Below are positions 6,960-64,000 of a stretch of DNA of 64,000 bases, in pieces. Positions within the stretch are counted from its first letter, which is position 1. Every line of letters starts with the position of its first letter. The stretch lies in IMG/VR virus record IMGVR_UViG_3300040770_000387; one strand, given 5' to 3'. The translations under genes and the position numbers were made by a program. A model generated the notes under the pieces. That model saw nothing but the letters and a program-made list of their open reading frames with translations, ran no database searches and had not been told where the DNA came from. The DNA is from a virus.

Positions 6960-7041
6960 AAATAGGCAAGACGTAATAGCTATGTAGTACATAAAAGTTC
7001 TGGGAAACGGGTTCTTAACATAAATCTCTGAAGTTTATTTT

Positions 7042-7050
7042 GTAGATTAT
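7042..7050 (+). promoter_or_regulatory. Candidate late-promoter element (GTAGATTAT after a T-tract)
   Basis: Degenerate version of the GTAAATTCT motif seen at 13806, 23311 and 39070. Confidence 0.25.
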
Positions 7051-7052
7051 AT

Positions 7053-8345: not shown

Positions 8346-8381
8346 TCCCAAAACTATCATACAACTTAATCTTTAATTAAC

Positions 8382-14561: not shown

Positions 14562-14782
14562 ACTTCTTAGAAAAGATAAACATCCTTATTGCGCAATCCG
14601 CATTTAGCATATACAAGAAAGTAAGGTATGGTATTAAGGATTGCAAACCAAAGATCGATGTGGCTCTTGTCGCAGACTTACGAATCCTACATCTTCGTTC
14701 CGTAGAAAGAATGGCTTGCAACCCTACGGCTGCAGAAGCTCTTCATTTGGACGAGGTTAATGAAAAAATAGCCACCCTATGA
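14558..14782 (+). CDS. Small hypothetical virion-associated protein (74 aa)
   Basis: ATGA overlaps on both sides; RYGIKDC motif. Confidence 0.7.
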   Translation: MNFLEKINILIAQSAFSIYKKVRYGIKDCKPKIDVALVADLRILHLRSVERMACNPTAAEALHLDEVNEKIATL

Positions 14783-39021: not shown

Positions 39022-39069
39022 GCACACAAAAATAGAAGCGCCACAGTTAGGAAAGAACAAATAATAGTT

Positions 39070-39087
39070 GTAAATTCTAACTGTAGG
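39070..39087 (+). promoter_or_regulatory. Candidate late promoter motif GTAAATTCTAACTGTAGG
   Basis: Near-identical to 23311-23328; overlaps an inverted repeat ACAGTTAG (39043-50)/CTAACTGT (39077-84). Confidence 0.5.
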
Positions 39088-39126
39088 ACGTTTAACCACA
39101 ACGATCATTTTAAACTCCAAAAGTTT

Positions 39127-42531: not shown

Positions 42532-42545
42532 CACAGCACACTAAA

Positions 42546-45262: not shown

Positions 45263-48200
45263 ATGGCTGAAAATATAGTAGACCAAAATACGGATCTATC
45301 CCTATCAGAGATGGAAACTGGTCCAGGTAAAAGACCAACAACAACTGCTCCCTCACAAGGGGGCAGTATTGCTAAACAGCAAAGTAGTTTCATGGGTAAC
45401 TTTTCAGATTCTTTGTCGCAGACTATAGACAAAGAAATGGGAACCGGTCCAAAGACACTTGCTCAACGTTTAGCTCCTGCTCCTTTGCCAGGCGGTATTA
45501 AGTATTATGATCCTTCTCAAGTGGATAGATACACCAGTCAAGAAAACTTTAACCCTTGGGGATTTGACGGAGGTGATCAAATAGGTAATAACGATCGAAA
45601 TGCTGCACAAGAAACCATGAGCTCTGCTTTGTCGAAAGGCTTTGATAGCTTTGGTGAAAAGTTTGGTAACACATTCAAAGATTACTGGAAATCCTACGGA
45701 AGAATGGGTAACGCTTTAATTAACGGAGACTGGGAACTTATGAAGCCTGATGAAGGCACTATGTTACAACAGTACTATACAGATCAAATGGACGCAGACA
45801 AAAACTTTGTGTTCCAAAAGCCAGAAGATGAAGACGGGATTTTTACTAAAAGAACCATGTCAGAATTTATAAGTAACTCCGGTTTTGCCCTGGGTACTTT
45901 TGCAGGAGTAGGTGTGGAAATTGCAGCAGACATTGCTGTAACCTGGGCCTCTGGAGGTTTAGGAGCTGGAAGTTTTATTGCTACAGCTACACGTCTTGCT
46001 GGAAAAGCAGGAGTAAAAATAGGAGCAAGAGAAGGAGCCGAAGTTGCAGCTACAGCTGTAGCTAGAAATGGGTTTAGCTTTGGTAACATGCTTAAAGGAT
46101 TTGAACTTGGAAACAAGGGGGTTGCAGAAATAGGCGCCTCGGCTAACTTACTTAAAAAAATACAACAAACAGAATCAGTAGCCAATATGACTGCGGCAAG
46201 TGCAAGAGGAGCCATGAGGCAATCTTTTGATATTTTTAGCCACAGGTTATTAGATCTGCGCAAAAGTAAAAGTGTACTTGAATTCGGAACTAACCTGGCC
46301 AAGAGCACCCCTGTTCTGGGAACAGGTATTAGCTTTGGAGAAAAAATAGCTGCAGGTGCAAAAGCAGGACTCACTAGTGGAGAGCTTATAGGCATGGGTC
46401 TTCAGGGAGCCAGACGTATGGCGCAAGAGATAAACTTGTCTGCTACCGAAGCTTCTTTTGAAGCAGTAACTACTACAGGAGATACGCTTAATCAAATGCT
46501 TACTCAGTACAGAGAAGACCACGATGGAGATAATCCAAGTGGAGAAGAGTTTGACAAAATGCGCGAGACAGCTTCTCAAGCTAGTAGTGCTAACTACGCT
46601 TCTAATATGGCGGTGCTTATGGGCACAAACAAATTGCAATTTGGAAACATGTTCAACAAGTTTCTTCCTGCTTCTAAAGTCATGTCAGACATGCTTGCGG
46701 AAAGTGCAGAAGATATTGCTTTGGTACAAGCTAAAGGTTTACGTAAATTATACGAAAAAGGCTTTGCAGGAATGTACGGTCTTGCTGGACAAATATCCAA
46801 AGACATGGGTAAAAAAGAAGCAGCGTATCAAATAGGCATGGCTTTTTTAAAAGACGTAGGTTCTTTTGAGATAGCAGAAGGACTTCAGGAAAACGTGCAA
46901 GAAACAACAGCAAACGGCTGGAAAGAATTTTACGCAAACAAATACAGAAATACAGATATCACTTTGACTAAAGCTTTTGGCGATGGTGCAAGAGAACAGT
47001 TTACAAAGCAAGGGTTAAAAACATTTTTGATGGGGGCCTTTACAGGATCTGTTATCAGACTGCCTACAGCAATTGCTACACGAAGTATAGAAAAAGTAAG
47101 ACAAAGCGTTACGGCTGCTCAATACACAGCAGATCCTAGTGCTAATCCTATGGTAAAAGCCAGAGAGCAGATCAGAAAAGATATTGTGTCTACTAACAAG
47201 GTGTTTCAAGAACTGCATGATAAAACATTTGACTATAAAGCATTCAACTTTGCAGCACAAGCAAATGCTGCAGAGAACATGGGTGAAGCAGCAGCTAAAG
47301 GTTTAGAGTATGAGTTTAATAACAATCGTCAAAATGCATTGCTCTCAGCAGTAGGTGCAGCAAAAAGAACTAATTCTATCGATGCGTTGTACGATGCTAT
47401 TAAAGGCATGGGGAATGATACTACCGCTGAACAATTCGAATCACAATTCGGTGTGACTATGGACCAGGTTAAATATGCCACACCTGTAGAATTTGCTCAC
47501 GATGTTGCTGGCAAAATAAAACAATACTCTGAACTTGTAGACGGCATTCGAAAAAACGTAGGTACTTTATCTGAACCACAGCTTTACGCTACAGGAAGTA
47601 TTGATCAACTTGCAGCTTCTCTTCTTCGTCAAGCACAAGATGACGCCGTAGAGATCATTGCTATGAATGCTATGAAAGGAACAATGGCTGCAAAACGAGC
47701 ACAAGAAGTTGCCAAAGACATGTCAAACATACCCGGTGTAGGAAACAGTTCTGATTATGCTATGCGTGTATTGACAAGTCCAAATTACTTGCAGTCTGAA
47801 ACAGGAAATATTATGGCTGAGCTTCGCATACTTTCTGATACGCTAGACGCTGGTGGTTTAAGCAACGCAGTTCGTTCTGATTTAGAAGCCCAACGTGCTG
47901 CTAAAATAGAAGAGGCGTCTCTGCTTAGCAAATGGCAAGGCTATTGGTCAAAGAAAAACGTGTCGCAATCTCTTAAACCAGAAGATGAAGAATGGGTATT
48001 GGATAAGTTCACTGGTGTAGAAGTTCCTATTACTAAAGTAACGGATCAAGATGGTAATGAGATAACGCTCTCTGATGAGGAGAAGGCTTACAATCGAGAA
48101 CACGATGATGTAGCAGATACTTTTCGCAAGCTGATGGACATCAAGAACAAACAAGCAGCAGTTACTTCACCTATTAGTGAAAGCGATATGAGAAAAGGTT

Positions 48201-49732
48201 TCTCAAAAATATCAGACTATTTAAAATTAGACCAAGACACAAAAGACTACATGCATTCGGTTGATGCTTTAAGCAATCCGGATCATTACATGCTTGCTAT
48301 TAAGCGTATGGCTAATGGTAAATTCAAACAGACTTTTATTGTACTGACCGACAATATAACCAACAAAGCTTTTGCTACTACTATTAGTACGTTAGAAGAT
48401 ATTTTTAAAGTAACAAACAACGAAAAAATATTTGACCAAGCTTTAATTTTCCGTGATGAGATTATAGCCAAAGTGCAGCAACTCGAGGCTTATAAAAACT
48501 TAATGGTTTTAATTGTTGACCCTGACCTTGGGTATGAGAATCATGCTTACGCAGTTGCAATGTTTAAAGAAGTAGAAGAAGGTCTCGCTACAATAAGCGA
48601 AGAGATTTTTGATAGAGAAACAGCAGCTGTAGTTAATGCAACACCTATAGTTACTCCAGTAGTAGAGCAAGAAGAAGAAGAAGAAGTAATTCTTCCTCAA
48701 GAACCAGAAGAAACACCTGAGGAAATTAATCCTAACGGGGCCTTTGGTGAAAATACAGTAGTGGTAATAGACAATGGTGATGAAGAAGAAGTGCCTGCTG
48801 TAGAAGAAGAAGAAACTGAATCAAGAGTTGGCGGCTTTAACGAAACAGAACTAAGCATTATTGGTTTATACACTAGACTTAAAGCAGGTGAGCCTTATGA
48901 TAACTTTACAGAAGAAGAAAAGGAATTGTTTTCTACACCAGACACAGAGCATCTTGGGGACGTAACTTTAGAAGAAGACAACGGAGAAGAAGAAGAGGTT
49001 GTAGAAGAAACACCTTTGCCATCAGAGCAGGAAACTCCAACAGAAGAAGAAGTAGTAGATCTTCCTGATAATACTCCTGTACAAGAAGAACCTTTTGCAG
49101 CAGAAGGACTTTACATACGAGACAAACAAGGAAACATTACAACGCAAAGACCTGCCGCTACAGAAGAAGAAGCTATTCAAACGGCTGCTTTAATGAGCAT
49201 CGAGTATTACAATGGCGAATGGGTCAGCTCTTTTTTAAATGGATCTCTTACTGAAATACCAAACCCTGTTGAGCTTACAGCGCAATTTTACGCAGGAGCT
49301 ATTAAAAGCATGGGTCGATTTAACACAACAAAAAGAGAAGGGCTTGAACCAATTAGCACGCTGGAAGAATACGCTAAAATTCCTAATGGAAAACGAGCGC
49401 TTGCATCGCTTAAGGAAAGACTTATTAATCCTAAAGTTAAGACTAATGTTGCAGGCATTGCTGTAACGGAAGTAGTGGAAAAAGAAGTTGTTACAAAACA
49501 AGATACAAGTAAAATTATAGAGACTACGTTTATTACAAAAGCAAAGCTTAAAGCTCTTCATAAAACGCTTACTGCGCTTCGTAAAAGTTATGTTGGAGAA
49601 ACCGAAGATAAAAAGGGTAATACCTTACAAGTTAAACAATTAAAGGTTAACTTTGCTATGACAGCAGAGGCAACCCAAAATGCCGAAGCAAAAGTCATCG
49701 CAGAGCTTCAGGAAATACTTAATTGTTTATAA
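45263..49732 (+). CDS. Large ejection protein with glycine-rich hydrophobic (membrane-inserting-like) segments and an acidic linker
   Basis: GFALGTFAGVGVEIAADIAVTWASGGLGAG; EGLQENVQ...FLMGAFTG; Glu/Pro-rich tract near 48660-49090. Confidence 0.7.
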   Translation: MAENIVDQNTDLSLSEMETGPGKRPTTTAPSQGGSIAKQQSSFMGNFSDSLSQTIDKEMGTGPKTLAQRLAPAPLPGGIKYYDPSQVDRYTSQENFNPWGFDGGDQIGNNDRNAAQETMSSALSKGFDSFGEKFGNTFKDYWKSYGRMGNALINGDWELMKPDEGTMLQQYYTDQMDADKNFVFQKPEDEDGIFTKRTMSEFISNSGFALGTFAGVGVEIAADIAVTWASGGLGAGSFIATATRLAGKAGVKIGAREGAEVAATAVARNGFSFGNMLKGFELGNKGVAEIGASANLLKKIQQTESVANMTAASARGAMRQSFDIFSHRLLDLRKSKSVLEFGTNLAKSTPVLGTGISFGEKIAAGAKAGLTSGELIGMGLQGARRMAQEINLSATEASFEAVTTTGDTLNQMLTQYREDHDGDNPSGEEFDKMRETASQASSANYASNMAVLMGTNKLQFGNMFNKFLPASKVMSDMLAESAEDIALVQAKGLRKLYEKGFAGMYGLAGQISKDMGKKEAAYQIGMAFLKDVGSFEIAEGLQENVQETTANGWKEFYANKYRNTDITLTKAFGDGAREQFTKQGLKTFLMGAFTGSVIRLPTAIATRSIEKVRQSVTAAQYTADPSANPMVKAREQIRKDIVSTNKVFQELHDKTFDYKAFNFAAQANAAENMGEAAAKGLEYEFNNNRQNALLSAVGAAKRTNSIDALYDAIKGMGNDTTAEQFESQFGVTMDQVKYATPVEFAHDVAGKIKQYSELVDGIRKNVGTLSEPQLYATGSIDQLAASLLRQAQDDAVEIIAMNAMKGTMAAKRAQEVAKDMSNIPGVGNSSDYAMRVLTSPNYLQSETGNIMAELRILSDTLDAGGLSNAVRSDLEAQRAAKIEEASLLSKWQGYWSKKNVSQSLKPEDEEWVLDKFTGVEVPITKVTDQDGNEITLSDEEKAYNREHDDVADTFRKLMDIKNKQAAVTSPISESDMRKGFSKISDYLKLDQDTKDYMHSVDALSNPDHYMLAIKRMANGKFKQTFIVLTDNITNKAFATTISTLEDIFKVTNNEKIFDQALIFRDEIIAKVQQLEAYKNLMVLIVDPDLGYENHAYAVAMFKEVEEGLATISEEIFDRETAAVVNATPIVTPVVEQEEEEEVILPQEPEETPEEINPNGAFGENTVVVIDNGDEEEVPAVEEEETESRVGGFNETELSIIGLYTRLKAGEPYDNFTEEEKELFSTPDTEHLGDVTLEEDNGEEEEVVEETPLPSEQETPTEEEVVDLPDNTPVQEEPFAAEGLYIRDKQGNITTQRPAATEEEAIQTAALMSIEYYNGEWVSSFLNGSLTEIPNPVELTAQFYAGAIKSMGRFNTTKREGLEPISTLEEYAKIPNGKRALASLKERLINPKVKTNVAGIAVTEVVEKEVVTKQDTSKIIETTFITKAKLKALHKTLTALRKSYVGETEDKKGNTLQVKQLKVNFAMTAEATQNAEAKVIAELQEILNCL

Positions 49733-49757
49733 TCCCAAATACTAAAGAACCTACCAT

Positions 49758-52700
49758 ATGGCATGTGAAACTACCACTGAAAAGTACACACAAGTTGTGC
49801 AAAAATTAATCGCGATAGATCCTGTAAAATACTCTGAGTTTGATAACATCGCAAAGTTTTTAATTAAAAGCGTGCTTACGCCAGAACAGAAAACATTATC
49901 CTTGCATCATATTGCACACATCTTCAAGTCTTTATCGAGCTTAGCTCCTGAAATTTACAGTATTGGAAACGCACATTTGGTTTCTGAAGGTGTTGTAAAC
50001 ATTGGTGAGCCAGACGTGTACATGGAAGCTATAGGCAGCATTTACGATGTAAAGCCTGATAAGATAGTATCTTTCAAAAAAATAACAGATGCTATATCTG
50101 CAATGGGTAATAGCAAAAACATACCTGTTACCGATGATCTTATTGGTGCTAACGGTGCTTTAGGATTAATGAACCAGTATTTTAATAGTGCTGAGTTTAA
50201 CTCTCGTGAAGAGCGTGCTGAATTACTCAAGCAAGCTTTTGACATGCTTGAGCAAGAAATTGTCAACATGGGGGATCTTCTTCCTGCTTCAAACAAAATG
50301 GCGTTGAGAAGTCAAATTGCTAAAGCAAAAAAATCACTAGAGTCTACTTCTGATTATATCAACAGAGACGACTTAGCTCCTCTTGAAGGATATGACTCTT
50401 ACATGGTGGTTCTTGCTGACGGTTCTATAGTAGAAGCTCAGCTTGGAGAAAACGGAAAGTTTCAATACATATGGTCCAACAACACAGGAGAAGTATCTGA
50501 CATACAAGAAGAAATAGTTTACAGTAAAAAGCTGGCCAATTTTCCTGCGTCAACGCGTCAAAGTATAAAACAAACATTCAAAGCAGATACAATAGCGTCT
50601 AGCTTTAGCATACGCGCTGTAAATCCTGACGACCAGGCTGCCATAGACAAGGTGATCAACAGTTCAGCAAGTCCTCAGTCTAAGATGGAAATAATCCTTG
50701 TGGTTAATTCTGGCATGGCTGATTTTCGTGTAGAAGCTTTACAGGCCAAGGCATCACAAGATCCTAAGCTTGCTTCTTTAGCTAATAGAAACCACGAGAC
50801 TTATGAAACAGCGGGTCAAATAAAAGCTTTACAAGCAACTCCTGACGCCACAATAATGACTGTTGCCCGACCTAAAGCTGGAGAGCAACCTTTTACGCTA
50901 ATGGGTAAAATCAAAGGTACCGATCAAATGTTTTATTTGTACGGTCTTGACAACTATGCTTTTGTAAAATCAGACAACAGCACAGAGCTGGTTGACTTTT
51001 CAAACGAAGGGCACTTGGCCTTAGTTAAAAAACTAGCAGACAAGTGGGGAAATAACTGGGTATCGGAAGATTTAACCCAAGAAGATTTAGATCAGCTTAA
51101 AGCGTCTTACCTACGTCATAAAGAATTTATGGCCGAAATGAGACCTTTAGCTCAAGAAGGTTTTGCTACTGACTTTAACATGGATGTTACCGAAGAGTTC
51201 TTCAACAAATATCGCATAGGAAGAGCTGATAACAACAAAACTTCTGAGAACTTAGACCAAGCTTTAAACAGAGATCGTTCTATATCTAAGTCGCTTACTG
51301 TTGTAACAGTGGTAGACGGAGAAGTAGTTGAGACAGAGCAAAATGTAAAGGTACCTTTCTTTTTTAGCAGAACGTCTTCTACAGAAATGGACTTAAAAGA
51401 TTTTGTACAGCATCAATTTTTGGCCAACAACCAGAAGATCGCGGTTAACACTCCTACCGGAGTAAAGTACATATCAGAAAGAGATTATGCAACACAAGTC
51501 TTAGGCATCAATCACAGCGTAATAGCGCAGAGTGTTACTACAGGACTTACCAACGGAAAAGATTTAGGTCAGAAGAACATACTAATTCAGTTTAACAAAG
51601 ACGGAAGCTTTGGCTATCGCATTGTAGAACCTATGCGTCCTTTTGAAAACGAGATGCAGTTTGGGATGTTTTTAGCCAACATGGTTAATGTAATCGACAG
51701 TGGGTTGACTAACATGGAATCAACAGTAAAAAGTTTTGACAAAGAAGGATTTACTTTTCGTTTCTACAACAACACCAAAGGGCAGACAAGGTTGAAAGTT
51801 AACTTTGCAGCAGGTGCTATGATCAATGGTAAACGAAGCTTGCAAATTGAACTACGTCCATTTGGAAATACTGGAGCATACGATTTCATTGTAGGCTCTT
51901 CTCAGAGCAGACAAGCTTTTAATTTTCCTTTAAACGAAAGTTTAATCAAAGATCTTAACTCTAAAATCAAAGCGCTAAGCAATGGTTCTAAATCTTTACG
52001 TGCGGCACATCCTGGTGTTTTTGGAATTAGCGACACAGAAAGTCTTAAAGGAACTATTGAGTTTTTCCAAAAGCTTGACGCTCTTGTTGGTTTGGGTAAT
52101 GTATCTCCTGAGGTACAAGCTCTGGTAGATGAGATCCGTAAAGCAGAACAGTTGTTTTCCAATCATATTATGGACACGGTTATCGGAGAAAACGCTTCTG
52201 CTCTTATTGCAAAAACAGCAGCCTATCCACAATTCATGGATGCGTTCAGAGAAGACTTTACAAGAAACGGTGTGTTTATGCCTAACTATCTTGTGGGACA
52301 AGATACAGAAGATAACACTTGGCACGCTCGTATTCAGCTTGGTAATGCCAATTCGCATTTCAACAACAGCTTTACCAGAAAAGCAAGAAACTATAAGCTG
52401 CTTACTTTCGATAAAAAAGAAGCACAGATTCTTCCAAACGAAGCAGACAACAGTAAAAGATTAACAGCTAACCCAGCAACAAATGGAGTTGTTGATATTA
52501 GTGTTGAAGAAGTTGTTGAAGAAGAAGTAACTCCAGAAGAAGTAGGTACAGGAACAACAAGTGTAGATGACACGGACGAATACATACCAGACATGTTTTC
52601 GTTGCTAGGTGCTGATGCTGCTTTTGAAACAGAAACAAAAGAAGAGCGCCTTACTACAACACAATGGTTAGCTGATGCTTTACCTCAATTAGGTTTAAGC

Positions 52701-55700
52701 ACAGAAGATGTTGCCGATATGATAGACCTTGCTAAAATTGACGGAAGAGTTCTTGGTGCTATGAAAGATAAGATGATATATCTTAGTAACAGTATGTTGT
52801 CAAAAGGAGTTGTCTATCACGAAGCTTTTCACGGAGTGTTTAGACATCTTATGACTTCTACTGAAAGAGATGCTTTGATTAACAAAGTTACTTTTATGGC
52901 TATGCACCAGTCTAAGTTTACTGATGCGGCACTAGAAGCTTTTGCTAGAGACAGAAACTTACTGTACAACAAGTCAGAGATGGCTCGATTACAAGCAGAA
53001 GAAATTCTGGCTGACGGCTTTCAAAAACACATGAATGAAGGTAAAAAATCTACAGGAATTGTAGCTGCCTTTCACAAAATTTTACGCAAGCTGTTGGAAT
53101 TTTTCAACATGCATTCTAAGCTTATTGATCACACGTACGCTGATATAAGCGACGGACGTTTTAGTCAAAGAGTTGCTCAGTCAGGTATGTTTCAAGATCA
53201 GGTGGCGTACGAGCTTATTCCGGGCTTAAAAGAATATTACATGGATGATGCTTTTGTTACACCAAGAGCTCGCAACGGCGCTTTGTCTACATACGATCAA
53301 AATCAATTGATCAGTACTGTTACAGCATACTTGTTAAATGATTTTGCTAAAGAAGATTTTGATACTAAGTTTGACAGGAATGCTAGAAAAGTGTTGGACG
53401 AAGTGTACAACATAGAAAAGCTGGTGGCACTTAGTCCTAAAAACAGAAAAGGAATCACTGAAAAGTACAACCCTCTTATTAGCAATTACCGATTCATGCT
53501 TGGTGCAAGACGTCCAAGAACAGAAGGAGAAACGTTAATTGAAGGAGAAACAATATATGAAGTAAACATCTCAGGAAACAAAAGCTACGACAAAAAGATA
53601 TTAAGCGTTGCTGTTGTTGATGGAGAAGTTGATAACAATCTTGGACAAGTTTCCTATGATGCTTTAAAAAGAATGGTAAAGAAACAGATCGACAAGACTA
53701 AAGATCTTTACCAAGAACTGGAAGACAGCGCTATTAATCTTAGCAACATAACTGGTGATAAAATCACAGATCAAGACGATGTTAAAAGCGATATCCAAGA
53801 AGGAGGTTCTTTTGATAAAGACAACAACGAGCACAATCCTATGGATGCGATGCCTGCTGTAGTGAGACGTTTGCTTTCACTGGTTCGTTCTACATCTTAT
53901 GATGCGCAGTTTAACATTGAGATTCCAACCATGGTTGATGCCGAGACGCTTTACGGAGCCCTTATAAAAACATCTGCCGATATTGCCCCAGAGCACATTG
54001 TTAATAACATAAAAGTAGTAGGACAAACTCTTGAGAAAGATGGTTACGAAATATCTCGTGATTATATTGCTTTGTACAACGAGATTAGCAGCAAGACCAT
54101 TATGAACGAAGACGGACAACCTTTGGTAAACAAGCAGTTGTTTCGTTCTATGGTAGATGCGCTTCACTTGGCAAGCGTTGAGTTTATGACTATGCACGTA
54201 CAATCAAAGTACGAATACATTCCGGAAGCAAAAGTATCTATTGACGAAACTATTGGTTACACTATAAAAGACAAGATTCAATACGAAGACATCAGCAAAA
54301 AGAAAAAAGATCTTATTGCAAGCATGATTACTACGCACACTGGTGAAGGAAGAACTCCTGCTTACAGAGAAGCTTTGAAAGAAGCGATTAGATTAAGCAC
54401 GCTTATTCTTATTGAGCCAGATCTTTTAAGTGATATCAAATCAACATCAGTAAAACTTGATACGCTTACTAATGATATCCATACTGCTTTTAAAACATTG
54501 GGTATGGTATTCCCTAAGTCTCTTATCAGTCTTTCTCTGATGGCGATAAACACTGTTGATAAAAAGCAAAAGACAGTGCTGGATGATGAAGGAAACTATC
54601 ATCAGTTGCACTATGACATTCATGCTGGTTTTATTGCCGACAAATCTTATTTGGAACTTGACTTTTTTACTGATGTAAAGTACATCTTAGGATTACTTAC
54701 TGGAGCAGAAGCGTTAAGCAACAATCAGTTTGCTAATTTAATGGATGAGTCTAACTTGGAAGTTATGCTTGCTAACCCTAAGAAGTACACAAACATAAAT
54801 CGCTTCAACATTATTGTGGGAAAAGCAATGAGTTATGTTGTTAAGTACGATCCTAGTGAATTGCCAGGTGTTGTAAAAGACTCTGAAGGAAAGACAAGAT
54901 ACCGATATGCTAAGTATTCCCCAGCAACAATTATTGCACAAAAAATTAGACGAGAAGGACTTGACGCTGCATTAAGCGATGATCCGCACTACTTGCATTC
55001 TTTAAAGAACTTTTTTGCTGACAACTATTTCTTTGCTGAAATGTTAGCAGGAGACGATTCTCTAAAGGTAGACATGATGAAGCTTTTCATGAACAACTTT
55101 AAAGTTCAAATGTTCGGAGGAGTTACACAAAGCATCAACGGAGAGTTTCAAAAAGGAAACAGTTTTAAAAACATTGACGAAAAATCACTATATGCTTTGG
55201 GGATCATGTCCTTCCTGAGCAGAACAAACTACAGCAGTTTTAAGAACGTAGTATTAGAAGACGGAACACGTGATGTTAAAGCAACAACTATAAGCACATA
55301 CGCAAGATCTTTTAGTCAACTAGAATCTTCTGACACCAATCTTTTGGTAACGGCGATATACAGTCCGTATGCCAACAGCAAAGGAGTAAGCAAGGACAAA
55401 GAAGGAAGGCTTAAGATTGTCGCCAACATGGAAGCTGTGGTAAAACAAGAGTACAATCGAATTCAAAGAGAATGGTCTTCTCGTGCTGCAGATAAAGAAG
55501 CATACGACTCTGGTAAGAAAGGGCGTTTGATGGCCAACTACAACGGGGTGATTGACGAAAATGACAAGACTAAAGCGGATGTAGAAAACAAAAAACTAAG
55601 AGGACACAAGTTTTCAAAGTTTGCTGATTTCTTTAACTCTGAAAAAGGAGCAGACCTTTCTGAAGCGCTTATCAATATTGCCAAAGCTGAAGGAGAAGAT

Positions 55701-58700
55701 GCTATTGCTTATCAGGATATTGCAGCAGATTTAAAGAAACAACTTTTAGATGCGCTTAATGTATATGCTCAAGATCAATTAGACAAGCATGTGCAACGCC
55801 TTGTAGATATCGAAGTAATCAGCAAAGTAGAAGAGCCTAGAATTAGTATGGCAAGCGGAACAGCTAAAACGCTAGAGACAGCTCCTAATACTTTTTACAT
55901 TTCTTCAGCCATAGCCAAGCAGCTTAAAGTGGCAGGACAACTTCCTGTTGCTATAAACGACATGTATTCTAAAAGTCCAAACAATTTTGATCTTTCAGGA
56001 AATGTTGTTACGGGTAAAGCAGACATTATAGGTCTGGTTCAAGATTCTTTCTTTAACAACTGGGCTAACGCAATGAGCGTGAATGACATTCTTGACGGTG
56101 ATATGGCGATGAACGTAAAAGATCAAGTGGATTACTTCAAAAGACAAAAGAAGTTTTTGGCTGCAGGTAGTACAATGAAAGAAGGATTTCACCGTGTAGC
56201 TTATTTTAACGCGCTTACGATATACATCGATACAAAGAATCCACAATATGGTCCTTACAAAACTTTTGAAGATATTGAAAGTGACACAAGGATTCCTACG
56301 GATGCTCTTCGAGCTGAGATTCAAGAAAATTGGAAGAACAAAAACAATCACTATGAGTCATTTGACGGACAGAGTATTACGTCGCTTATGCATCAGATGG
56401 ATATGCACGAATCAATGGGTCGTTTAAGTGAAGGCATCATAGACATTATGATTGCTAAGCATTACCGCGAACTTTCACAAAAAGAATTGGCTGAAATGAA
56501 AGCCAACAAAGTAGTAAACAACCCAAAGAAAAGCGTTACTGCTGATAGAAATGTGTACCATAAACTTTCTGAGACTTATATTGACAGACTTCAAGTTAGT
56601 GAGCTTTTGTTAAATGGTAAAACAAAAAAAGAAGTAGAAGAAACACTTCATGGATTGTATGCTGAGGTGTATTCTCTTCGTGCGTTACGCCAGGAAGCAC
56701 ACAAAGCAGGAGAGTTTGGTATGATTAGCGATTTAGATGCTCGTATAAAAGTAGCTATTCAATTAGCACACGGTTATTTTGCACCACTAAATCATCGTAA
56801 AGAACAGCACGCAATATTAAACTCTATGGAATACCATCAGGTAGACCAAGTTATGGATACTACTGCTTCAAAGAATGCGACTATACTTCCTTTAGATATA
56901 GAAGCATCTAAGCTTGCTATAGGCGAGTACTTAAATCTTCCTTTAGCTTCTCAAGATCTTGATAACAGATTTAAGTTTCTTCAGGTAGAAACATCAGGAG
57001 TAAAAGACAAAGTTAAAATGTCAGTACAAAGTAAAACTTTGTTACCTGCGGATTTAGCTCGTCTGTTTGAAATTGCTACTGCCGGAGGTAATGAACTTAG
57101 TGCTTCAGAAAAAGCTTCTGTAGATCAAGTTGCTGACACGCTTGTAAAATACCAAGACTCTCTTCGTAAAATTAGCGAGTCTAACATGGCAGCACTTAAG
57201 ACAGTAATGCGCAAAGGAGCTGACTTTGACATGGGTCTGGTTTACAAACTAATCTATGAGAACCTTGCTGCACAAGGAGCACCAAGTCCCACACTTGATT
57301 TGTTTTCAAGAGACGCCTCTGGAAAACCAGTGCACAGCCCAAATCTTCCTGCAATACGAAACATGCTCGAGTACTATTTCTTTTCACAATACTCTAAGCA
57401 TGTTACCGATGAAAAAGGAGCCGGATTTAAAAACATCCACATCAGTTCTTACGGGTACGATGTTGTTGAAGAAATTGCTACTGGTAAAATTATAACAACA
57501 GATACTATTCGAAAAGATCCTCGCAAGTACGAAGACAAAGCTTTATACAAAGCGCGTCCTTTGGGAGTATCTGTGGAAGATGAGTTGGGTAAAGACGGAT
57601 TGCCTACAGGAAGAAAGATCTACTTCATGGAAACCATCATGCCAATGCCTGGTGATTTTAGTAATCCACAACAACGTGAGTTTTACATGAAATATTTGAC
57701 CAAAGCATTTGGGGTTCGTATCCCATCTGAGGACAAAAGATCCATGGTAGCAATAAAGGTGGTAGACTTCTTAGACAGTTCTAATTCAAACGGTATAGTA
57801 ATGCCTCAAATGGTTCACTTGTTAGCAGGTTCCGATTTTGATGTTGATGCACTTTACGGACAAGTGTACGCACATTACGTTAACGCAGCAGGTGTAGCAG
57901 TGCTTTATGGAGATTACGAAAGATACGGTAGTAAAGCTACAGGTGAGTTTGTAGAATTTGTTCACTACATGGGTAAGGATATGGATCTTAAAGAGTTGAT
58001 TACAATTCAAAAGAAAAAACTTTTAGAGCAAGAAGACTATACACCAAGTCAAAACGCTCTTGACATTGTCCTTGACATGGGTTTTGAAAAAGAAGACATT
58101 ATTCAAAACATGAATTTGAAAGAACTTCAAGACACGTATTCTGATTTACAAACAGATTACAAAGCGGCACAAGTTTTAAGCAACTCTGTCGGAGAAGAAT
58201 TTGCTGCAGCAAAAGATTTTGCTATAAAAAATCCTCAAGACAAAGAAGCATCAAAGGAACGCAAAAGATTAGGAGCGTACATCAATGAAGTCAACACGAA
58301 CACAGAAAGACTTCGCGAAGAAAAACGAGAAATTTATCCTGAAATAACAAGGGCAGCTCAGTTCAAAAGAGCAGTGCTTAAAATAGAAGCTACACTTTTA
58401 GTTTTGCAGGCGTACAACCTTCCTGTTAGCCAGGCTAAATTCGAGGCAAATCCGGACTATAATTTAAGTGTTAGACCAAAGTACCAAAACGAAAACTTAG
58501 CGGCTAAAATAGGCATCATGTCTAACGAGGCCGTGTTTAATCATCTTTACATACACGAGCATGCTTCTCCAGAAAGATTTGCCGCTATACTAGATGCAAA
58601 AGGAATTGACATTAAGAAGTTTGGTAGTGGGTATAATCATCTTACCTCTGATGGGATGATCAAGACTAAGGTGACTAACTCGATGAACAAAGACGGTATT

Positions 58701-61286
58701 AGTATATCAGCCAACATTAACAAGTTTATGTCGATGGCCAGTCAGTATGACTTAAAACTAAACAAAAAAAATGTAGTGTGGAGCTACGTTAAAAAGACAC
58801 AAGTAGAAGGAGAAGCTCCTGAATATGAAATAGTAAGTCGCGATAGCTTTGGAGGAATGAACGATGAGAGCACTAGAGCCATAGCGCTTGTGGGAAACAT
58901 GTTAGGTATGTTTGCCGATGCTGCAAAAGATCCTTTCCCTGCAGCACTTATGCTTAACGAGGTTAATACTACTACGATATTATCCATGCTTGGTGTTGGA
59001 GTTGAACCTGATATGGCGATGTCTTTCAATTTTATTCCAGAGATTCGCAATGCAATTGCCAGAGTACAACAGTCTAAAGCGGCTTTGACCAAAGGAGTAA
59101 CCAACGAAATGGGCTTTTTAGGAACAGAGATTAACGCAGAGTTAAAAGAAATTGTTACTGCTGATGTGCTTGATGAGCTGTTTAAAAAAGGCGTAATTCT
59201 CCCAGGGTCTTACGGATCAAAATTACTCTTGAACAAAGAACGCATTTTGTTAGAACACACTGCAAAAAAATTAGACGCAAAGGCTATTGAAGCAAACGTG
59301 CTAACTACAAACCAAATTGGATTTACAGTAAGTGCTGTTATTACTTCTGGTAAAAAAGGAAGCGAAGTAATTAGTCAGGATGGTTTAAGCGAAGAAGCTA
59401 CTAAAGCAATATTGATGACATACTACAACGAACAAGCAGCACAGACTTGGAAGATTCGTGATGCTGGTTCGATTAACAACTTGTTTAAAAAGCTAAATCC
59501 TTCGTTTATTACTTTTGACAAGTTGCGTCAAAATGTAAACGACATGCGATATGCAGCGGCAGGAGTTGGAGAAAGCATTTTTACTCAAGAATCATTAGCA
59601 CCTATGTTTGCTAAAAATCAACCTTGGGGTGTTTTAGCAGATGCTTTAGATGATCTTAACGATCAAGCGGCTAAGATATTTTTAGAAAGAACAGAGTCAT
59701 TCAAGCCTATTACTAACGCTTTTGAAACGGTCTTTACAGATAAGGCCAACATAGCCAAAGTTATTACAAGTTTCGTAGCCCTATACAAGTACAAAAGCAC
59801 AATGCCTGGAAGCAGGACTTCAACAAACAAAGTTCTCGCAGAGCGATTTGCTCAGGACGATGCTAACTTGCTAGAAGCGTTCACCCCAGAGTATTGGTTT
59901 AATAATACTTTAGCTGAAGAACTAAATACGATGCAACAAAAGTATCCTACAAATGCATTCTTAAAACTGATTCGTCCACAAAGCGAAAAGACTAAAGCAG
60001 TGTATGGAGACGACACTCCGGCAACAGAAGAAAGTCTTCGTATTTTAGGTAAGGTTAAGATCAATGGTGCAGCAGCAGATGCCATAACAGATGATGCTCG
60101 ATTGTTAGTTTCAAAAGAACCCATCTTTATGAAAAAGTTGTTTTATCATGAGTTAGCTAAAACAGGAATGCATTACAAAGCAGGTTCGTTCTTGCAGTAC
60201 ATGCCTTCAGAATATACAGCGCCTCTTTCTAAGTACATTGAAGGGTTTGTAGATGTCCTTAGGGATTCTCACAAAGACAGAAAAGGAATGATCGACAAGC
60301 TGGCTACATACATGGGAATAACAGATACTGATGTAGAAGAACGAAACAGAAAGGTTTACGGATTCTTTGATGCTCTGTTCGTTCAGATGGGACATGCTGC
60401 AGTAAAAGAAGTAGGTAACAAAAAAATTGTTATGCCTAGGGCAGTTTCTTTTTCGCAAGACGCTAAATGGGGACGCAACTTTATGGGTCTTTTTGAATTT
60501 GACGAAGAGACACCTGCTAACGGAATAGATTTTACAGCTGCTGAAATATCTGTTATAGAAACTAAAAGATTAGCCATTGCTGCAGAACATCTTTCTGATA
60601 TAGTAGGACAAGAAGTAGACCCTAAGCTAAACAAGTTTCAGCTGTCAAGTGTTATTAACAAAGAAGCTGTTCCAAGTATTACGCTTAACTTTAATCTTAA
60701 ACTTGAGAATGCGCTTAGCGAATCTGTACTAGACGCTGTTGCCAAAACATTAGGCCTTGGTTATGACCAAGAAACAGGCGATCGGATTTTTCCAGTATTG
60801 CTTAAAGTAGGAACAAATAATTACATCTTGCAAGGTGTTGATTTGGACATGGACAACAACAGTTTTGGAAAAACAGTAGTGCGTGCTATCAGCTACAACG
60901 GAAGTATATCTTTATCCGGAACAACTGCAAAATACAAACTTTTGCCGGCGGCTTTATCCTCAGGAACATTAAGCCCAATAGGATTTAGTGCAAAGGCATC
61001 AAAGATGTACATGGATTACATTAACAAAGCAGCAATTCTACCTTTTAAAGAAGGATATGTTCCTATTGAAAGACAAGCCCCAAAGAAAGTTTTAGCCCCT
61101 GAGGTAGTAGAAGCTATGCCAGAAACAGCTAACTTTGTAGAAGAAGCTTGGGACATTTTCTATGAAGACAGTTCTAAACAATTAAGCAAAGAAGCTTATA
61201 AGAAAACAGCCATGGACATGTACGTGCAACTTCGCGGAACCTTTACCAAAATTGAGCAATTCTTAGACATCATAAAGTGCCTTTAA
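49758..61286 (+). CDS. Giant virion RNA polymerase (two-barrel, crAss/phi14:2 gp66-like) with zincin-like protease domain
   Basis: GSDFDVD catalytic-type motif (57834-57848), VRIPSEDKRSM, KRQKKFLAAG, ADAAKDP; HEAFH (52818-52832) with downstream EEILAD. Confidence 0.9.
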   Translation: MACETTTEKYTQVVQKLIAIDPVKYSEFDNIAKFLIKSVLTPEQKTLSLHHIAHIFKSLSSLAPEIYSIGNAHLVSEGVVNIGEPDVYMEAIGSIYDVKPDKIVSFKKITDAISAMGNSKNIPVTDDLIGANGALGLMNQYFNSAEFNSREERAELLKQAFDMLEQEIVNMGDLLPASNKMALRSQIAKAKKSLESTSDYINRDDLAPLEGYDSYMVVLADGSIVEAQLGENGKFQYIWSNNTGEVSDIQEEIVYSKKLANFPASTRQSIKQTFKADTIASSFSIRAVNPDDQAAIDKVINSSASPQSKMEIILVVNSGMADFRVEALQAKASQDPKLASLANRNHETYETAGQIKALQATPDATIMTVARPKAGEQPFTLMGKIKGTDQMFYLYGLDNYAFVKSDNSTELVDFSNEGHLALVKKLADKWGNNWVSEDLTQEDLDQLKASYLRHKEFMAEMRPLAQEGFATDFNMDVTEEFFNKYRIGRADNNKTSENLDQALNRDRSISKSLTVVTVVDGEVVETEQNVKVPFFFSRTSSTEMDLKDFVQHQFLANNQKIAVNTPTGVKYISERDYATQVLGINHSVIAQSVTTGLTNGKDLGQKNILIQFNKDGSFGYRIVEPMRPFENEMQFGMFLANMVNVIDSGLTNMESTVKSFDKEGFTFRFYNNTKGQTRLKVNFAAGAMINGKRSLQIELRPFGNTGAYDFIVGSSQSRQAFNFPLNESLIKDLNSKIKALSNGSKSLRAAHPGVFGISDTESLKGTIEFFQKLDALVGLGNVSPEVQALVDEIRKAEQLFSNHIMDTVIGENASALIAKTAAYPQFMDAFREDFTRNGVFMPNYLVGQDTEDNTWHARIQLGNANSHFNNSFTRKARNYKLLTFDKKEAQILPNEADNSKRLTANPATNGVVDISVEEVVEEEVTPEEVGTGTTSVDDTDEYIPDMFSLLGADAAFETETKEERLTTTQWLADALPQLGLSTEDVADMIDLAKIDGRVLGAMKDKMIYLSNSMLSKGVVYHEAFHGVFRHLMTSTERDALINKVTFMAMHQSKFTDAALEAFARDRNLLYNKSEMARLQAEEILADGFQKHMNEGKKSTGIVAAFHKILRKLLEFFNMHSKLIDHTYADISDGRFSQRVAQSGMFQDQVAYELIPGLKEYYMDDAFVTPRARNGALSTYDQNQLISTVTAYLLNDFAKEDFDTKFDRNARKVLDEVYNIEKLVALSPKNRKGITEKYNPLISNYRFMLGARRPRTEGETLIEGETIYEVNISGNKSYDKKILSVAVVDGEVDNNLGQVSYDALKRMVKKQIDKTKDLYQELEDSAINLSNITGDKITDQDDVKSDIQEGGSFDKDNNEHNPMDAMPAVVRRLLSLVRSTSYDAQFNIEIPTMVDAETLYGALIKTSADIAPEHIVNNIKVVGQTLEKDGYEISRDYIALYNEISSKTIMNEDGQPLVNKQLFRSMVDALHLASVEFMTMHVQSKYEYIPEAKVSIDETIGYTIKDKIQYEDISKKKKDLIASMITTHTGEGRTPAYREALKEAIRLSTLILIEPDLLSDIKSTSVKLDTLTNDIHTAFKTLGMVFPKSLISLSLMAINTVDKKQKTVLDDEGNYHQLHYDIHAGFIADKSYLELDFFTDVKYILGLLTGAEALSNNQFANLMDESNLEVMLANPKKYTNINRFNIIVGKAMSYVVKYDPSELPGVVKDSEGKTRYRYAKYSPATIIAQKIRREGLDAALSDDPHYLHSLKNFFADNYFFAEMLAGDDSLKVDMMKLFMNNFKVQMFGGVTQSINGEFQKGNSFKNIDEKSLYALGIMSFLSRTNYSSFKNVVLEDGTRDVKATTISTYARSFSQLESSDTNLLVTAIYSPYANSKGVSKDKEGRLKIVANMEAVVKQEYNRIQREWSSRAADKEAYDSGKKGRLMANYNGVIDENDKTKADVENKKLRGHKFSKFADFFNSEKGADLSEALINIAKAEGEDAIAYQDIAADLKKQLLDALNVYAQDQLDKHVQRLVDIEVISKVEEPRISMASGTAKTLETAPNTFYISSAIAKQLKVAGQLPVAINDMYSKSPNNFDLSGNVVTGKADIIGLVQDSFFNNWANAMSVNDILDGDMAMNVKDQVDYFKRQKKFLAAGSTMKEGFHRVAYFNALTIYIDTKNPQYGPYKTFEDIESDTRIPTDALRAEIQENWKNKNNHYESFDGQSITSLMHQMDMHESMGRLSEGIIDIMIAKHYRELSQKELAEMKANKVVNNPKKSVTADRNVYHKLSETYIDRLQVSELLLNGKTKKEVEETLHGLYAEVYSLRALRQEAHKAGEFGMISDLDARIKVAIQLAHGYFAPLNHRKEQHAILNSMEYHQVDQVMDTTASKNATILPLDIEASKLAIGEYLNLPLASQDLDNRFKFLQVETSGVKDKVKMSVQSKTLLPADLARLFEIATAGGNELSASEKASVDQVADTLVKYQDSLRKISESNMAALKTVMRKGADFDMGLVYKLIYENLAAQGAPSPTLDLFSRDASGKPVHSPNLPAIRNMLEYYFFSQYSKHVTDEKGAGFKNIHISSYGYDVVEEIATGKIITTDTIRKDPRKYEDKALYKARPLGVSVEDELGKDGLPTGRKIYFMETIMPMPGDFSNPQQREFYMKYLTKAFGVRIPSEDKRSMVAIKVVDFLDSSNSNGIVMPQMVHLLAGSDFDVDALYGQVYAHYVNAAGVAVLYGDYERYGSKATGEFVEFVHYMGKDMDLKELITIQKKKLLEQEDYTPSQNALDIVLDMGFEKEDIIQNMNLKELQDTYSDLQTDYKAAQVLSNSVGEEFAAAKDFAIKNPQDKEASKERKRLGAYINEVNTNTERLREEKREIYPEITRAAQFKRAVLKIEATLLVLQAYNLPVSQAKFEANPDYNLSVRPKYQNENLAAKIGIMSNEAVFNHLYIHEHASPERFAAILDAKGIDIKKFGSGYNHLTSDGMIKTKVTNSMNKDGISISANINKFMSMASQYDLKLNKKNVVWSYVKKTQVEGEAPEYEIVSRDSFGGMNDESTRAIALVGNMLGMFADAAKDPFPAALMLNEVNTTTILSMLGVGVEPDMAMSFNFIPEIRNAIARVQQSKAALTKGVTNEMGFLGTEINAELKEIVTADVLDELFKKGVILPGSYGSKLLLNKERILLEHTAKKLDAKAIEANVLTTNQIGFTVSAVITSGKKGSEVISQDGLSEEATKAILMTYYNEQAAQTWKIRDAGSINNLFKKLNPSFITFDKLRQNVNDMRYAAAGVGESIFTQESLAPMFAKNQPWGVLADALDDLNDQAAKIFLERTESFKPITNAFETVFTDKANIAKVITSFVALYKYKSTMPGSRTSTNKVLAERFAQDDANLLEAFTPEYWFNNTLAEELNTMQQKYPTNAFLKLIRPQSEKTKAVYGDDTPATEESLRILGKVKINGAAADAITDDARLLVSKEPIFMKKLFYHELAKTGMHYKAGSFLQYMPSEYTAPLSKYIEGFVDVLRDSHKDRKGMIDKLATYMGITDTDVEERNRKVYGFFDALFVQMGHAAVKEVGNKKIVMPRAVSFSQDAKWGRNFMGLFEFDEETPANGIDFTAAEISVIETKRLAIAAEHLSDIVGQEVDPKLNKFQLSSVINKEAVPSITLNFNLKLENALSESVLDAVAKTLGLGYDQETGDRIFPVLLKVGTNNYILQGVDLDMDNNSFGKTVVRAISYNGSISLSGTTAKYKLLPAALSSGTLSPIGFSAKASKMYMDYINKAAILPFKEGYVPIERQAPKKVLAPEVVEAMPETANFVEEAWDIFYEDSSKQLSKEAYKKTAMDMYVQLRGTFTKIEQFLDIIKCL

Positions 61287-61321
61287 TCAACCTACCTGAA
61301 TTTACCAAATACCTTTAACCT

Positions 61322-64000
61322 ATGAGTAATTTTTGTCACAACACTAATGATCCGGATTGGAAAATCCTAGAGGCTGCTCTAGGTAGGGCAGACGCAGAAG
61401 TCGCCTACGAGCTTAACAAAAAAGAAATCCCAACTATAGAAGAAGCTCGGTTGTTATTATCTCAGGCTAAAGTGGAAGAAAAAGACGAACAGATCTCACG
61501 CTCGCCTGACGCTTTTAAACTTAAAAGAGCAATAGCTCAGATGAATGTTTTGACACTAGCTTCTGAAAAAGGAAACGATCCTCAGAAAGAAACCATGGCC
61601 AAAATAATGGACATGAATCGATCGTACCAGGAATTTCTTCAAGGAAACTTAGATCGAATTAAAAACGGAGAAGCTCCTATAAAAACTATTTCTGTTAGCA
61701 ACTTGTTGGGTAACTCTGATTTTAAAGGAGACGCTAAATTGTACGAGGCTTTCAAACTTTTTGGAACTTTTATGCACGAGGTTATTGAGTTAGCTTCTGT
61801 AGAGGCTTTAGCTAAAGGTGTTAGTATTCAAAAAGTAATGACCAAAGAGTTCTTTGACAGCAGTTATGAAAACTACGGAAAGAAAACACCGTTTGTTATT
61901 GAAGAGTTTAGCACCACTATGATGTACGAAGCTGCTGTAGAAATAGCCAATAACATTCCTTCTAACGGAGGCCACATTATTGTTCCTGAAATTACAGTGA
62001 TGGGGACTAACGCAAACCAAGCTCGTATCATAGGACGTGTCGATTTAACCATAATTGACCGTATGGGTAGAGTAAAGATATTTGATTTTAAAACTAAAAA
62101 AGTAACAGACCTTGTTACATTTGGTCCTGGAAAACCTACAGTAGATAACGCTGACAAAGCGTTGCTTAACATAGCACAAAAAGGATATGAAGTGAGCAAC
62201 CTTGCCGGAACTATGGTCAAGCTTGTTGGTAATAACAGAACAGAGTATGAAAAATGGACACAGCAACTTAAGGTGTATGAAAATATTCTTATGCAAAGCG
62301 GTATTCCAGTATCAGACAATACTATTGTAGCATTTATTTACCAGACAACAATACTTAATCCAGAAACACCAGAGATAGGATCTAAGTATTTAGGAAGTGT
62401 AGTTCACGTTTTTGACGAAAAAAACTTTTTTGATTACGCAAAGACTGTAGCACATCCCGATCCTGATGGATTCTGGAACAACTCGGATGTTTCAAATCGA
62501 TTGTTAGAAACCTCACACAAGATTATAAACGAGGAGATCCCTACCGGAGTGGACAACAGTTATGATAAACTAGTAAAAGCATTCAAGAAACTAGAATTCG
62601 ACGTGCCTGGATCAAAGAACCGTCAACTCTTAGACAACGTAAAGAATCTTATTGCAGCAGAAAAGCAGCAAATAAGCCAGGACATTAGTTCCATGAAGAA
62701 TAATCCGGAGTATAAAGGCTCGTTGACATTACTTGAAGGACGTCAGGCAGCACTTAGCAAACTAGACGACATATTACAAAGAGAAGATATAGAAGACCAG
62801 GTGATGTACTCTTTAAATTTTTCTATTGTAATGGAGCAAGTGGATGAAGAAATGAGTCGGCTTATGGAACTTTCAGAAATAGCTGTTGCCGAGTTTAGAG
62901 GACAAGCGTTTTTAAAATCTAATGACCAGATCAAAACTGTTACAACAGCTTCTGCAAAAGCAAGAGCTATGTTTGACGTGATACAAGTCTTAAGAGAAAC
63001 CATTACTGAGGCAAAAGAAAACCCAGCAAATGGTATCACTGAAGACAGTGCGGTTATGAAAAAGCTTTCGCTTATAGACAGTTATACAGAATCTCTTGCT
63101 GCAAATATGAGAGAAATTGGTTTGGCCACAGCAATGGGTACAATCAAATCCGCTATTTCAGAAAAAGGATTCAACAAAGTAAAAGGAGAATTAAGCGAAA
63201 TAGATGAAGGAAAACTAATTGTGCTTAGAAAAAAACTAGCCGATCTTCGTGAAGGAAAATTTGGAGGGCCTATTGCTTTTCTTAAAAACAAAAGCTTGTT
63301 GTTCATGTCTCCTCGTTACAAAAAATTGTTAGCAGAGAAAATGGGTGTTCAAGGCGGCGGTTTTATAGAAGCTATTGAACGTGTGGAGATGGATATAAAA
63401 AAACTAGAAAGAAGAGCTCTTGATGGTTTTGATTACGATGATGAGTCTATTAGAAAATACCTTGAGGGTTCCGGAGATCCAAATCAAGATTGGTCCATAG
63501 GATCACAAGATTTTTATATGCCTGATGGTATATTGTCTTCTACTTCTATTGACAAGATGATAGCCTCTGTTTCTAACAAAGATCTTTTGATATCAGCGCA
63601 AACGCAAATAAACAAAAACACTTTAGCTGCAGCAACTCGTACTATGATGACTGATATGGCTAACTTAAAAGTAGATCAGCGTTTAGAAAAGCTGCGCTCT
63701 ATTATGAGCATAGAGCAGTTAAACGATATGATATCGGAGACGCAAGAAAGAAGCTTTATGGATTACAACACAGGAGAAGTTTCAAACAAAAATGTGTTGC
63801 ATCTTAACCGTCATTACGGATCAGAATATGCCAATAAGTTTAGCGACTTTAAAAACGACATGTTTGTTTTTCGCAATGACATTAAAGAACTAAAGATGGC
63901 GCATAACAGCGCTGTAAAAATGCTACACTCTACCAGCAAAACGATTAGTGATGCAGAGGCTTCTAAAAATGCAAAAGAAGCTATGAAAGCGCTTACTGAA
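61322..64000 (+). CDS. Giant cargo protein (5' part, truncated by the window end) with PD-(D/E)XK nuclease domain
   Basis: Missing from the track because it has no stop. I translated 893 open codons: MSNFCHNTNDPDWKIL; GTFMHEVIE, PEIT, GRVDLTII...IFDFKT, QQLKVY. Confidence 0.88.
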   Translation, partial: MSNFCHNTNDPDWKILEAALGRADAEVAYELNKKEIPTIEEARLLLSQAKVEEKDEQISRSPDAFKLKRAIAQMNVLTLASEKGNDPQKETMAKIMDMNRSYQEFLQGNLDRIKNGEAPIKTISVSNLLGNSDFKGDAKLYEAFKLFGTFMHEVIELASVEALAKGVSIQKVMTKEFFDSSYENYGKKTPFVIEEFSTTMMYEAAVEIANNIPSNGGHIIVPEITVMGTNANQARIIGRVDLTIIDRMGRVKIFDFKTKKVTDLVTFGPGKPTVDNADKALLNIAQKGYEVSNLAGTMVKLVGNNRTEYEKWTQQLKVYENILMQSGIPVSDNTIVAFIYQTTILNPETPEIGSKYLGSVVHVFDEKNFFDYAKTVAHPDPDGFWNNSDVSNRLLETSHKIINEEIPTGVDNSYDKLVKAFKKLEFDVPGSKNRQLLDNVKNLIAAEKQQISQDISSMKNNPEYKGSLTLLEGRQAALSKLDDILQREDIEDQVMYSLNFSIVMEQVDEEMSRLMELSEIAVAEFRGQAFLKSNDQIKTVTTASAKARAMFDVIQVLRETITEAKENPANGITEDSAVMKKLSLIDSYTESLAANMREIGLATAMGTIKSAISEKGFNKVKGELSEIDEGKLIVLRKKLADLREGKFGGPIAFLKNKSLLFMSPRYKKLLAEKMGVQGGGFIEAIERVEMDIKKLERRALDGFDYDDESIRKYLEGSGDPNQDWSIGSQDFYMPDGILSSTSIDKMIASVSNKDLLISAQTQINKNTLAAATRTMMTDMANLKVDQRLEKLRSIMSIEQLNDMISETQERSFMDYNTGEVSNKNVLHLNRHYGSEYANKFSDFKNDMFVFRNDIKELKMAHNSAVKMLHSTSKTISDAEASKNAKEAMKALTE

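Follow-up and report, generated by a model that had tools for sequence, protein, structure and literature searches.

The cargo block of a divergent crAss-like phage encodes giant proteins whose only cysteines lie at the ends that face the next protein, an arrangement that suggests head-to-tail joining. The DNA analysed here, hereafter the window, is a stretch of 64,000 nucleotides from the IMG/VR virus record IMGVR_UViG_3300040770_000387. It represents a strand-coherent late region of the Crassvirales type with very large open reading frames (ORFs) at its end. Three of these, all on the plus strand, encode protein A (45263..49732, 1489 amino acids, aa), protein B (49758..61286, 3842 aa), predicted to be a giant crAss-type virion RNA polymerase (RNAP) with a zincin-like module, and protein C (61322..64000, 893 of 2015 codons in the window), which resembles the RNAP-associated protein gp49 of the cultured phage crAss001. 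All three are probably packaged and injected into the host, because their counterparts in crAss001 and in a second cultured phage, phi14:2, are virion proteins by mass spectrometry. We propose that the C-terminal cysteine of each protein bonds with the N-terminal cysteine of the next, so that A, the first link, B, and C, the last link, would form one disulfide thread for packaging and ejection; on balance we judge this probable. The head-to-tail pairing is well supported by sequence comparison; that the bond is a disulfide and that it serves ejection is plausible, but not proven.

Protein A contains a single cysteine, Cys1488 (codon TGT, 49724..49726, plus strand as for all codons given here), located at position -2 in the C-terminal ILNCL. 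Two cysteines are present in B, Cys3 (TGT, 49764..49766) in the N-terminal MAC and Cys3841 (TGC, 61278..61280) in the C-terminal IIKCL. The visible part of C has only Cys5 (TGT, 61334..61336), in the N-terminal MSNFC. On re-reading of the window, the ORFs and cysteine positions given for A, B and visible C in an earlier note on this sequence matched exactly. Full-length C of the same contig (P0251 in the protein collection) consists of 2015 aa, has an identical N-terminus and likewise contains only Cys5. Altogether, A, B and C comprise four cysteines in 7,346 aa (0.054%), as compared to 141 in 9,812 aa (1.44%) of the non-cargo ORFs of the window (binomial P ~4e-40). With uniform placement, all four would come to lie within 5 residues of the facing ends with a probability of ~3e-11.

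Loss of the terminal cysteines in relatives, on which the earlier note had staked its idea, is not what comparison revealed, as they are kept across the A, B and C families and in both cultured phages. Homologues were collected from metagenomic proteins (48 for A, 120 for B and 120 for C) and from 78 IMG/VR loci, which range in polymerase-core identity from 60% to 28% and comprise gut crassviruses among others. All 48 A proteins have exactly one cysteine, at position -1 to -4, and none has an N-terminal one. In the B family a cysteine is found at positions 3-7 of the approximately 110 seemingly full-length proteins among the 120 and within 5 residues of the C-terminus in 117/120, with 0-4 internal cysteines per ~4,000 aa. 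The C family has a cysteine at positions 3-8 in 116/120 members and a C-terminal one in 0/120; the four exceptions without N-terminal cysteine are short, probably truncated gene calls. The two outer ends of the set, the N-terminus of A and the C-terminus of C, are in other words free of cysteine without exception.

When the last 120 residues of 42 A homologues are aligned, three columns are invariant, and Cys1488 is in one of them. Among 48 diverse B homologues, no column of the first 350 residues is invariant except that of Cys3; over the last 350, in which column identity averages 10%, only Cys3841 comes near invariance. Sequence contexts vary around the constant cysteine, with C-terminal KCL, ENNC, SETC or NCNGG and N-terminal MAC, MKQC or MSKRC. 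Since both TGT and TGC are used at each of the four sites, selection acts at the amino-acid level.

The cultured phages display the same pattern. In crAss001, gp47 has a lone cysteine at -3, gp50 has cysteines at 5, 1334 and -9, and gp49 has a lone Cys5. In phi14:2 the lone cysteine of gp67 is the last residue, gp66 has cysteines at 3 and 2179, and gp65 a lone Cys3. In the crAss001 genome gp47 is encoded on one strand and gp50 and gp49 on the other, which indicates that the pattern is independent of gene adjacency or of any DNA junction signal. Judged from the sequences compared, the terminal-cysteine rule holds for the phage order as a whole.

The strongest argument that facing cysteines work together is that the pairs follow the breaks between polypeptides. 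At 66 non-redundant IMG/VR loci, cysteines are present on both sides of 116 of the 123 adjacent junctions. The seven exceptions concern neighbours from outside the chain, an unrelated ORF inserted in one case, or fusions. Splitting, fusion and displacement of break points each give examples of how the pairs behave.

In many relatives, B ends with ENNC (or SETC, or PLDC) and is followed by a gap. A small ORF with two cysteines was predicted to lie in this gap ahead of inspection, and it was then found at every such locus. It encodes a protein of 149-195 aa (193-195 aa where B ends with ENNC), here called D, with exactly two cysteines, at position 3-5 and at -2 (C-terminal KCL). Longer versions of the split-off ORF (326-744 aa) obey the same rule. 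A profile of D finds the last 60-115 aa of B proteins that are not split (E 1e-13 to 1e-17), from which it follows that D is the C-terminal module of B, separately encoded. Searched with the same profile, the B protein of the window gave no match at E <=1, and only a 42-aa blastp match (E 3e-4) was obtained, although close relatives scored strongly. Unsplit B proteins, that of the window included, have no cysteine at the split site. The new B|D junction has gained a cysteine on both sides.

Fusion is exemplified by one locus (L043), whose gene order is a 1049-aa ORF, an 828-aa ORF, a 4532-aa ORF and C. The 4532-aa ORF occupies the syntenic slot of A and B, starts with MAEN like A, has ~700-780 extra N-terminal residues with respect to B, and contains a single cysteine at -2. 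This locus has no separate A, no N-terminal cysteine and no junction cysteine, and the protein encoded upstream of the 4532-aa ORF is cysteine-free. At another locus (L071), zincin and catalytic modules are united in a single 3524-aa ORF, again without N-terminal cysteine. The A|B break itself is also shifted between clades: in crAss001 it is located just after the zincin module, in the clade of the window ~930 residues before it. Each clade keeps a cysteine pair at its own, non-homologous break. Across all architectures the number of terminal cysteines equals twice the number of breaks, i.e. 2, 4, 6 or 8. The pairing of each C-terminal cysteine with the N-terminal cysteine of the next gene product, which the earlier note had put forward, is supported by these split, fusion and shifted-break cases.

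Terminal placement and conservation by themselves require no contact between cysteines. Each could act alone, either by anchoring the protein end to a further partner such as the portal, the inside of the capsid, the inner body or a DNA-end protein, or as a mark for packaging or processing, and disulfides are indeed employed by gp57, the portal-vertex protein of crAss001, and by the tail proteins of this phage. A general end mark, however, would be expected at the free ends too, where cysteine is absent (0/48 for the N-terminus of A, 0/120 for the C-terminus of C). Cysteines are moreover gained or lost two at once, on both sides of a break, and potential partners are few: there are no cysteines in the major capsid protein or in the 430-aa ORF that directly precedes it, and only two in the portal. 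We thus consider an independent function of each cysteine unlikely.

Still less likely, in our estimation, is a junction in which the facing cysteines are joined via a metal ion (Zn, Fe or Cu), similarly to a zinc hook, as a non-covalent and reversible clasp between successive cargo proteins. Such a clasp accounts for the pairing and for the tracking of breaks just as a covalent bond does; it could form in the reducing cytoplasm, the site of assembly; and a conserved metal-binding HExxH module is present in B. Nevertheless, a junction with two thiols, and with no conserved histidine or second cysteine beside any terminal cysteine, falls short of a normal four-ligand site. The terminal cysteine count, which changes with the breaks from 2 to 4, 6 and 8, argues against one shared Cys4 centre.

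The HExxH motif also brings to mind a cysteine switch, where a terminal cysteine binds the catalytic zinc of the zincin-like module and holds the protease latent until ejection. Latency of this kind is established in matrix metalloproteinases, and the motif is invariant in B homologues. We regard this as very improbable, because a single zincin site faces 2 to 8 terminal cysteines, pairs at breaks such as B|D and D|C are distant from the zincin module, and phi14:2 gp67 and gp66 show the pattern without detectable HExxH. Finally, N-terminal cysteine positions do depend on the start codon picked, but chance or an annotation artefact is practically dismissed by the placement probability in this window alone, by the use for A, B and C of the first start codons following the preceding in-frame stop, and by recurrence of the pattern in hundreds of homologues, those of two cultured phages among them, a conservation that already refutes it.

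Several further candidates were tried and rejected. Split inteins would need halves of ~100 and 35 aa, for which there is no room with cysteines 1-10 residues from the chain ends, and fused homologues have no junction cysteine. A true zinc hook or shared Cys4 site does not agree with one cysteine per terminus, absence of CxxC-type motifs and absence of conserved neighbouring cysteine or histidine. Cysteines at positions 3-7 are not preceded by a signal peptide, as would be the case for a lipoprotein lipobox, and the variable position at the C-terminus (-1 to -10) disagrees with CaaX prenylation. A nucleotide-level junction signal was discarded on account of the use of both cysteine codons, the varying contexts and the opposite strand of the crAss001 gp47 gene.

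To return to the disulfide thread, its formation can be pictured as follows. The giant cargo proteins are purged of cysteine, as are the injected proteins of N4-like phages, except at the ends facing the next protein. The C-terminal cysteine would join the N-terminal cysteine of the following protein, most likely through a disulfide formed once the proteins adjoin in the particle. A disulfide appears the likeliest bond because each junction offers two thiols only, without conserved histidine or cysteine neighbours, because the variable cysteine count excludes a single Cys4 centre, and because crAss001 virions contain disulfides. The product would be a thread A-B-(D)-C, linear and polar, with ~7,300 residues, in which the N-terminus of A and the C-terminus of C stay free. 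It would act as a single giant polypeptide packaged in 1:1:1 ratio, in which every protein drags its successor along the narrow tail channel and its constrictions, until the reducing cytoplasm of the host cuts it into working subunits. Contact of the two cysteines, chemistry and timing of the bond, and its role in ejection are what we infer. The cargo would be unfolded within the chain, would be threaded along the tail and would be set free once the cytoplasm reduces the bonds. This scheme fits the model presented for crAss001, in which partly unfolded cargo leaves in the N-to-C direction (PMC10172136).

The earlier note had suggested structure prediction of a C-terminal peptide together with the next N-terminal one. 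This was run for the A|B junction, using the last 120 aa of A and the first 120 aa of B. The complex scored 0.50, as compared to 0.01 for the best of 3 controls. Across prediction runs, contacts agreed to at least 63% and the predicted local distance difference test (pLDDT) value of the partner was at least 65. The mark applied to such predictions is passed by 58 of 80 solved complexes and by 2 of 110 mismatched pairs; among those that pass, scores of 0.60 or under belong to only 7 of the 80 complexes and to both mismatched pairs. The prediction thus lends weak support to a contact between A and B.

Several points speak against the disulfide thread, and the weakness of this prediction is one of them. 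Disulfide formation is questionable, given that the cytoplasm, the site of assembly, is reducing and that the habitat of gut crassviruses is anaerobic. Conservation of the cysteines largely reflects shared ancestry, and independent split or fusion events are few, a handful. Parity of the cysteine count is equally compatible with other pairings, e.g. of the N-terminus of B with its own C-terminus and of A with C. In the case of the fused locus, the N-terminal extension of the 4532-aa ORF is missed by the A-family profile, so its assignment to A is by synteny and the MAEN start only.

The closest known systems are crAss001 with gp47, gp50 and gp49 (Bayfield et al. 2023, PMC10172136) and phi14:2 with gp67, gp66 and gp65, where gp66 corresponds to PDB 6VR4. 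Apart from the terminal cysteines, they share with the window a catalytic GSDFD[IV]D module homologous to that of B and a zincin-like module homologous to the C-terminal region of gp47. The genomic setting is shared as well, with crAss-type terminase, portal, capsid and tail-ring genes. On the other hand, proteins of the window are far larger (3842 aa for B, 2412 aa for crAss001 gp50 and 2180 aa for phi14:2 gp66), A and B are separated upstream of the zincin module and not after it as in crAss001, and core identity is only ~25%. By mass spectrometry, crAss001 gp47, gp49 and gp50 are cargo of the virion, and disulfides are present in the virions (PMC10172136). In the crAss001 structure the cargo is not resolved, and order of extrusion is said to depend probably on packing and mutual interactions (PMC10172136). 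A 2026 paper on N4 calls the mutual relation of the three crass RNAP-associated proteins unresolved (PMC13434306). Terminal cysteines are mentioned neither in the crassvirus structural paper (PMC10172136) nor in this N4 paper (PMC13434306). Full-text literature searches, in which Drobysheva et al. 2021 was not covered, retrieved no description of a terminal-cysteine link.

Phages of the N4-like group (Schitoviridae) likewise eject a giant virion RNAP with helper proteins, N4 gp50-gp52 and DEV gp71-gp73, and share the suppression of cysteine (PMC11445570, PMC13434306). The strong depletion of cysteine in their ejection proteins is ascribed to the oxidising periplasm that these have to cross (PMC11445570). 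The two systems differ in that the N4-type polymerase is one polypeptide of a T7-like family, essentially cysteine-free including its termini, whereas here the polymerase unit is divided into three or four polypeptides, with cysteines kept at exactly the facing termini. Suppression of cysteine in ejected phage proteins is therefore already known from N4-like phages; the terminal pairing rule appears to be new, as no paper describing it was found.

Redox-switched virions provide another parallel. In papillomavirus and polyomavirus capsids, and in the tail and portal vertex of crAss001, interchain disulfides would form outside the reducing cytoplasm and be undone on entry, as proposed here. These bonds cross-link capsid or tail subunits sideways, whereas the arrangement that we propose is a linear head-to-tail concatenation. 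To our knowledge, such concatenation of injected proteins has not been described before.

Crassvirales are the most abundant phages of the human gut. How their five cargo proteins are packed and ejected is a standing question, for which a head-to-tail link encoded in sequence offers a concrete model. If the thread exists, the phage would have the advantages of a single chain longer than 7,000 residues and yet be spared translating it in one piece. The free drift, splitting and fusion of break points between giant genes in evolution would be explained, and a new use of disulfides in virus entry would be added. In its most general form, the proposal is that Crassvirales tie their injected RNAP proteins through terminal disulfides into a redox-cleavable thread, which sets stoichiometry and order of ejection and is cut by the host cytoplasm. 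We put this forward tentatively, as a possibility that we would not yet call probable.

The outer ends of the chain, although devoid of cysteine, are conserved in their own way. Most A homologues start with MAEN or MAEE. C proteins end with R[IL]DxMKxxQ in many relatives and with IPFFKQ in gut clades; C of the window differs and ends with EDRLTNVN. These conserved ends of A and C may be docking signals for the ends of the thread.

Several lines of evidence support the assignment of B as a crAss-type virion RNAP, a label already attached to it in the earlier note and borne out here by motif, tblastn and profile match to gp50. The catalytic aspartate motif GSDFDVD is found at residues 2691-2697 (57828..57848, plus strand) and is invariant in 48 homologues. 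Its counterparts are DFDVD at 1483 in crAss001 gp50 and DFDID at 1361 in phi14:2 gp66. By tblastn, B matches crAss genes annotated as putative RNAP with 23-33% identity and E down to 2e-11. A profile of the B catalytic segment matches residues 1435-1491 of crAss001 gp50, with DFDVD at 1483 inside the match (E 6.7e-17). The match of the B core profile to the solved structure 6VR4 is weak (6vr4_A residues 1319-1404, E 0.0048).

The zincin-like segment of B carries the HExxH motif as HEAFH at residues 1021-1025 (52818..52832, plus strand), equally invariant in 48 homologues. In profile search, B residues 930-1320 proved homologous to residues 2070-2295 of crAss001 gp47 (E 1e-18). This homology surfaced with profiles only, as phmmer of crAss001 proteins against window proteins detected nothing. 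No related loci were found in a search with the C-terminal 699 aa of B, and the N-terminal alignment of B is too variable for building search patterns. A zincin-like protease module accompanies the polymerase block and is located in different polypeptides in different clades. Various B homologues (P0013-P0118) contain extra domains, namely RNase H (PF00075), PF08719, PF13532, PF18760, PF25176 and PF03734. The giant polymerase is in this respect a polyvalent carrier of accessory modules, and the inserted domains are likewise nearly cysteine-free. An internal cysteine ~67 residues upstream of the catalytic aspartates, in the alignment column of residue 2626 of window B, occurs in 18/48 B homologues; B of the window does not have it.

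Protein A is the counterpart of the portion of crAss001 gp47 upstream of the zincin domain, and scans of PHROGs and Pfam yielded no match for either A or B. In C, a PD-(D/E)XK nuclease domain was detected at residues 146-260 (window 61757-62101) by PF12705, with 23.6 bits against a cut-off of 22. The same precomputed Pfam match is present in most C homologues. This third, RNAP-associated protein may thus be a nuclease.

The crAss-type structural module of the window consists of terminase (phrog_6681), portal (phrog_6547), capsid (phrog_11589) and tail-ring proteins, the last recognized by Pfam CrAss_Ring_2 (62.9 bits) and CrAss_Ring_1 (39.4 bits), both above curated cut-offs. Megablast of the region against GenBank phages returned zero matches. 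Immediately upstream of A, three further ORFs of the cargo block (407, 1134 and 899 aa; 37798..45245, plus strand) have no cysteine; they belong to the cysteine-depleted block and stand outside the chain. Two relatives (G001 and G002) and the contig of the fused locus share this gene order.

Cysteine content varies in other parts of the window too. Capsid-shell proteins (4233-10001) are cysteine-poor, with zero in the 539-aa capsid protein and the preceding 430-aa ORF and two in the portal. Tail and fibre ORFs are cysteine-rich, with 19 cysteines in 14779-17076 and 35 in 25723-30741. Among the small ORFs of the window, no gene for a thiol oxidase or a thioredoxin-like protein was recognized. 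A 2032-aa ORF (31695-37793) has only two cysteines, near each other (C459 and C466). A lone close pair is also found in crAss001 gp45 (C390 and C398) and phi14:2 g069 (C369 and C378), a resemblance in cysteine placement.

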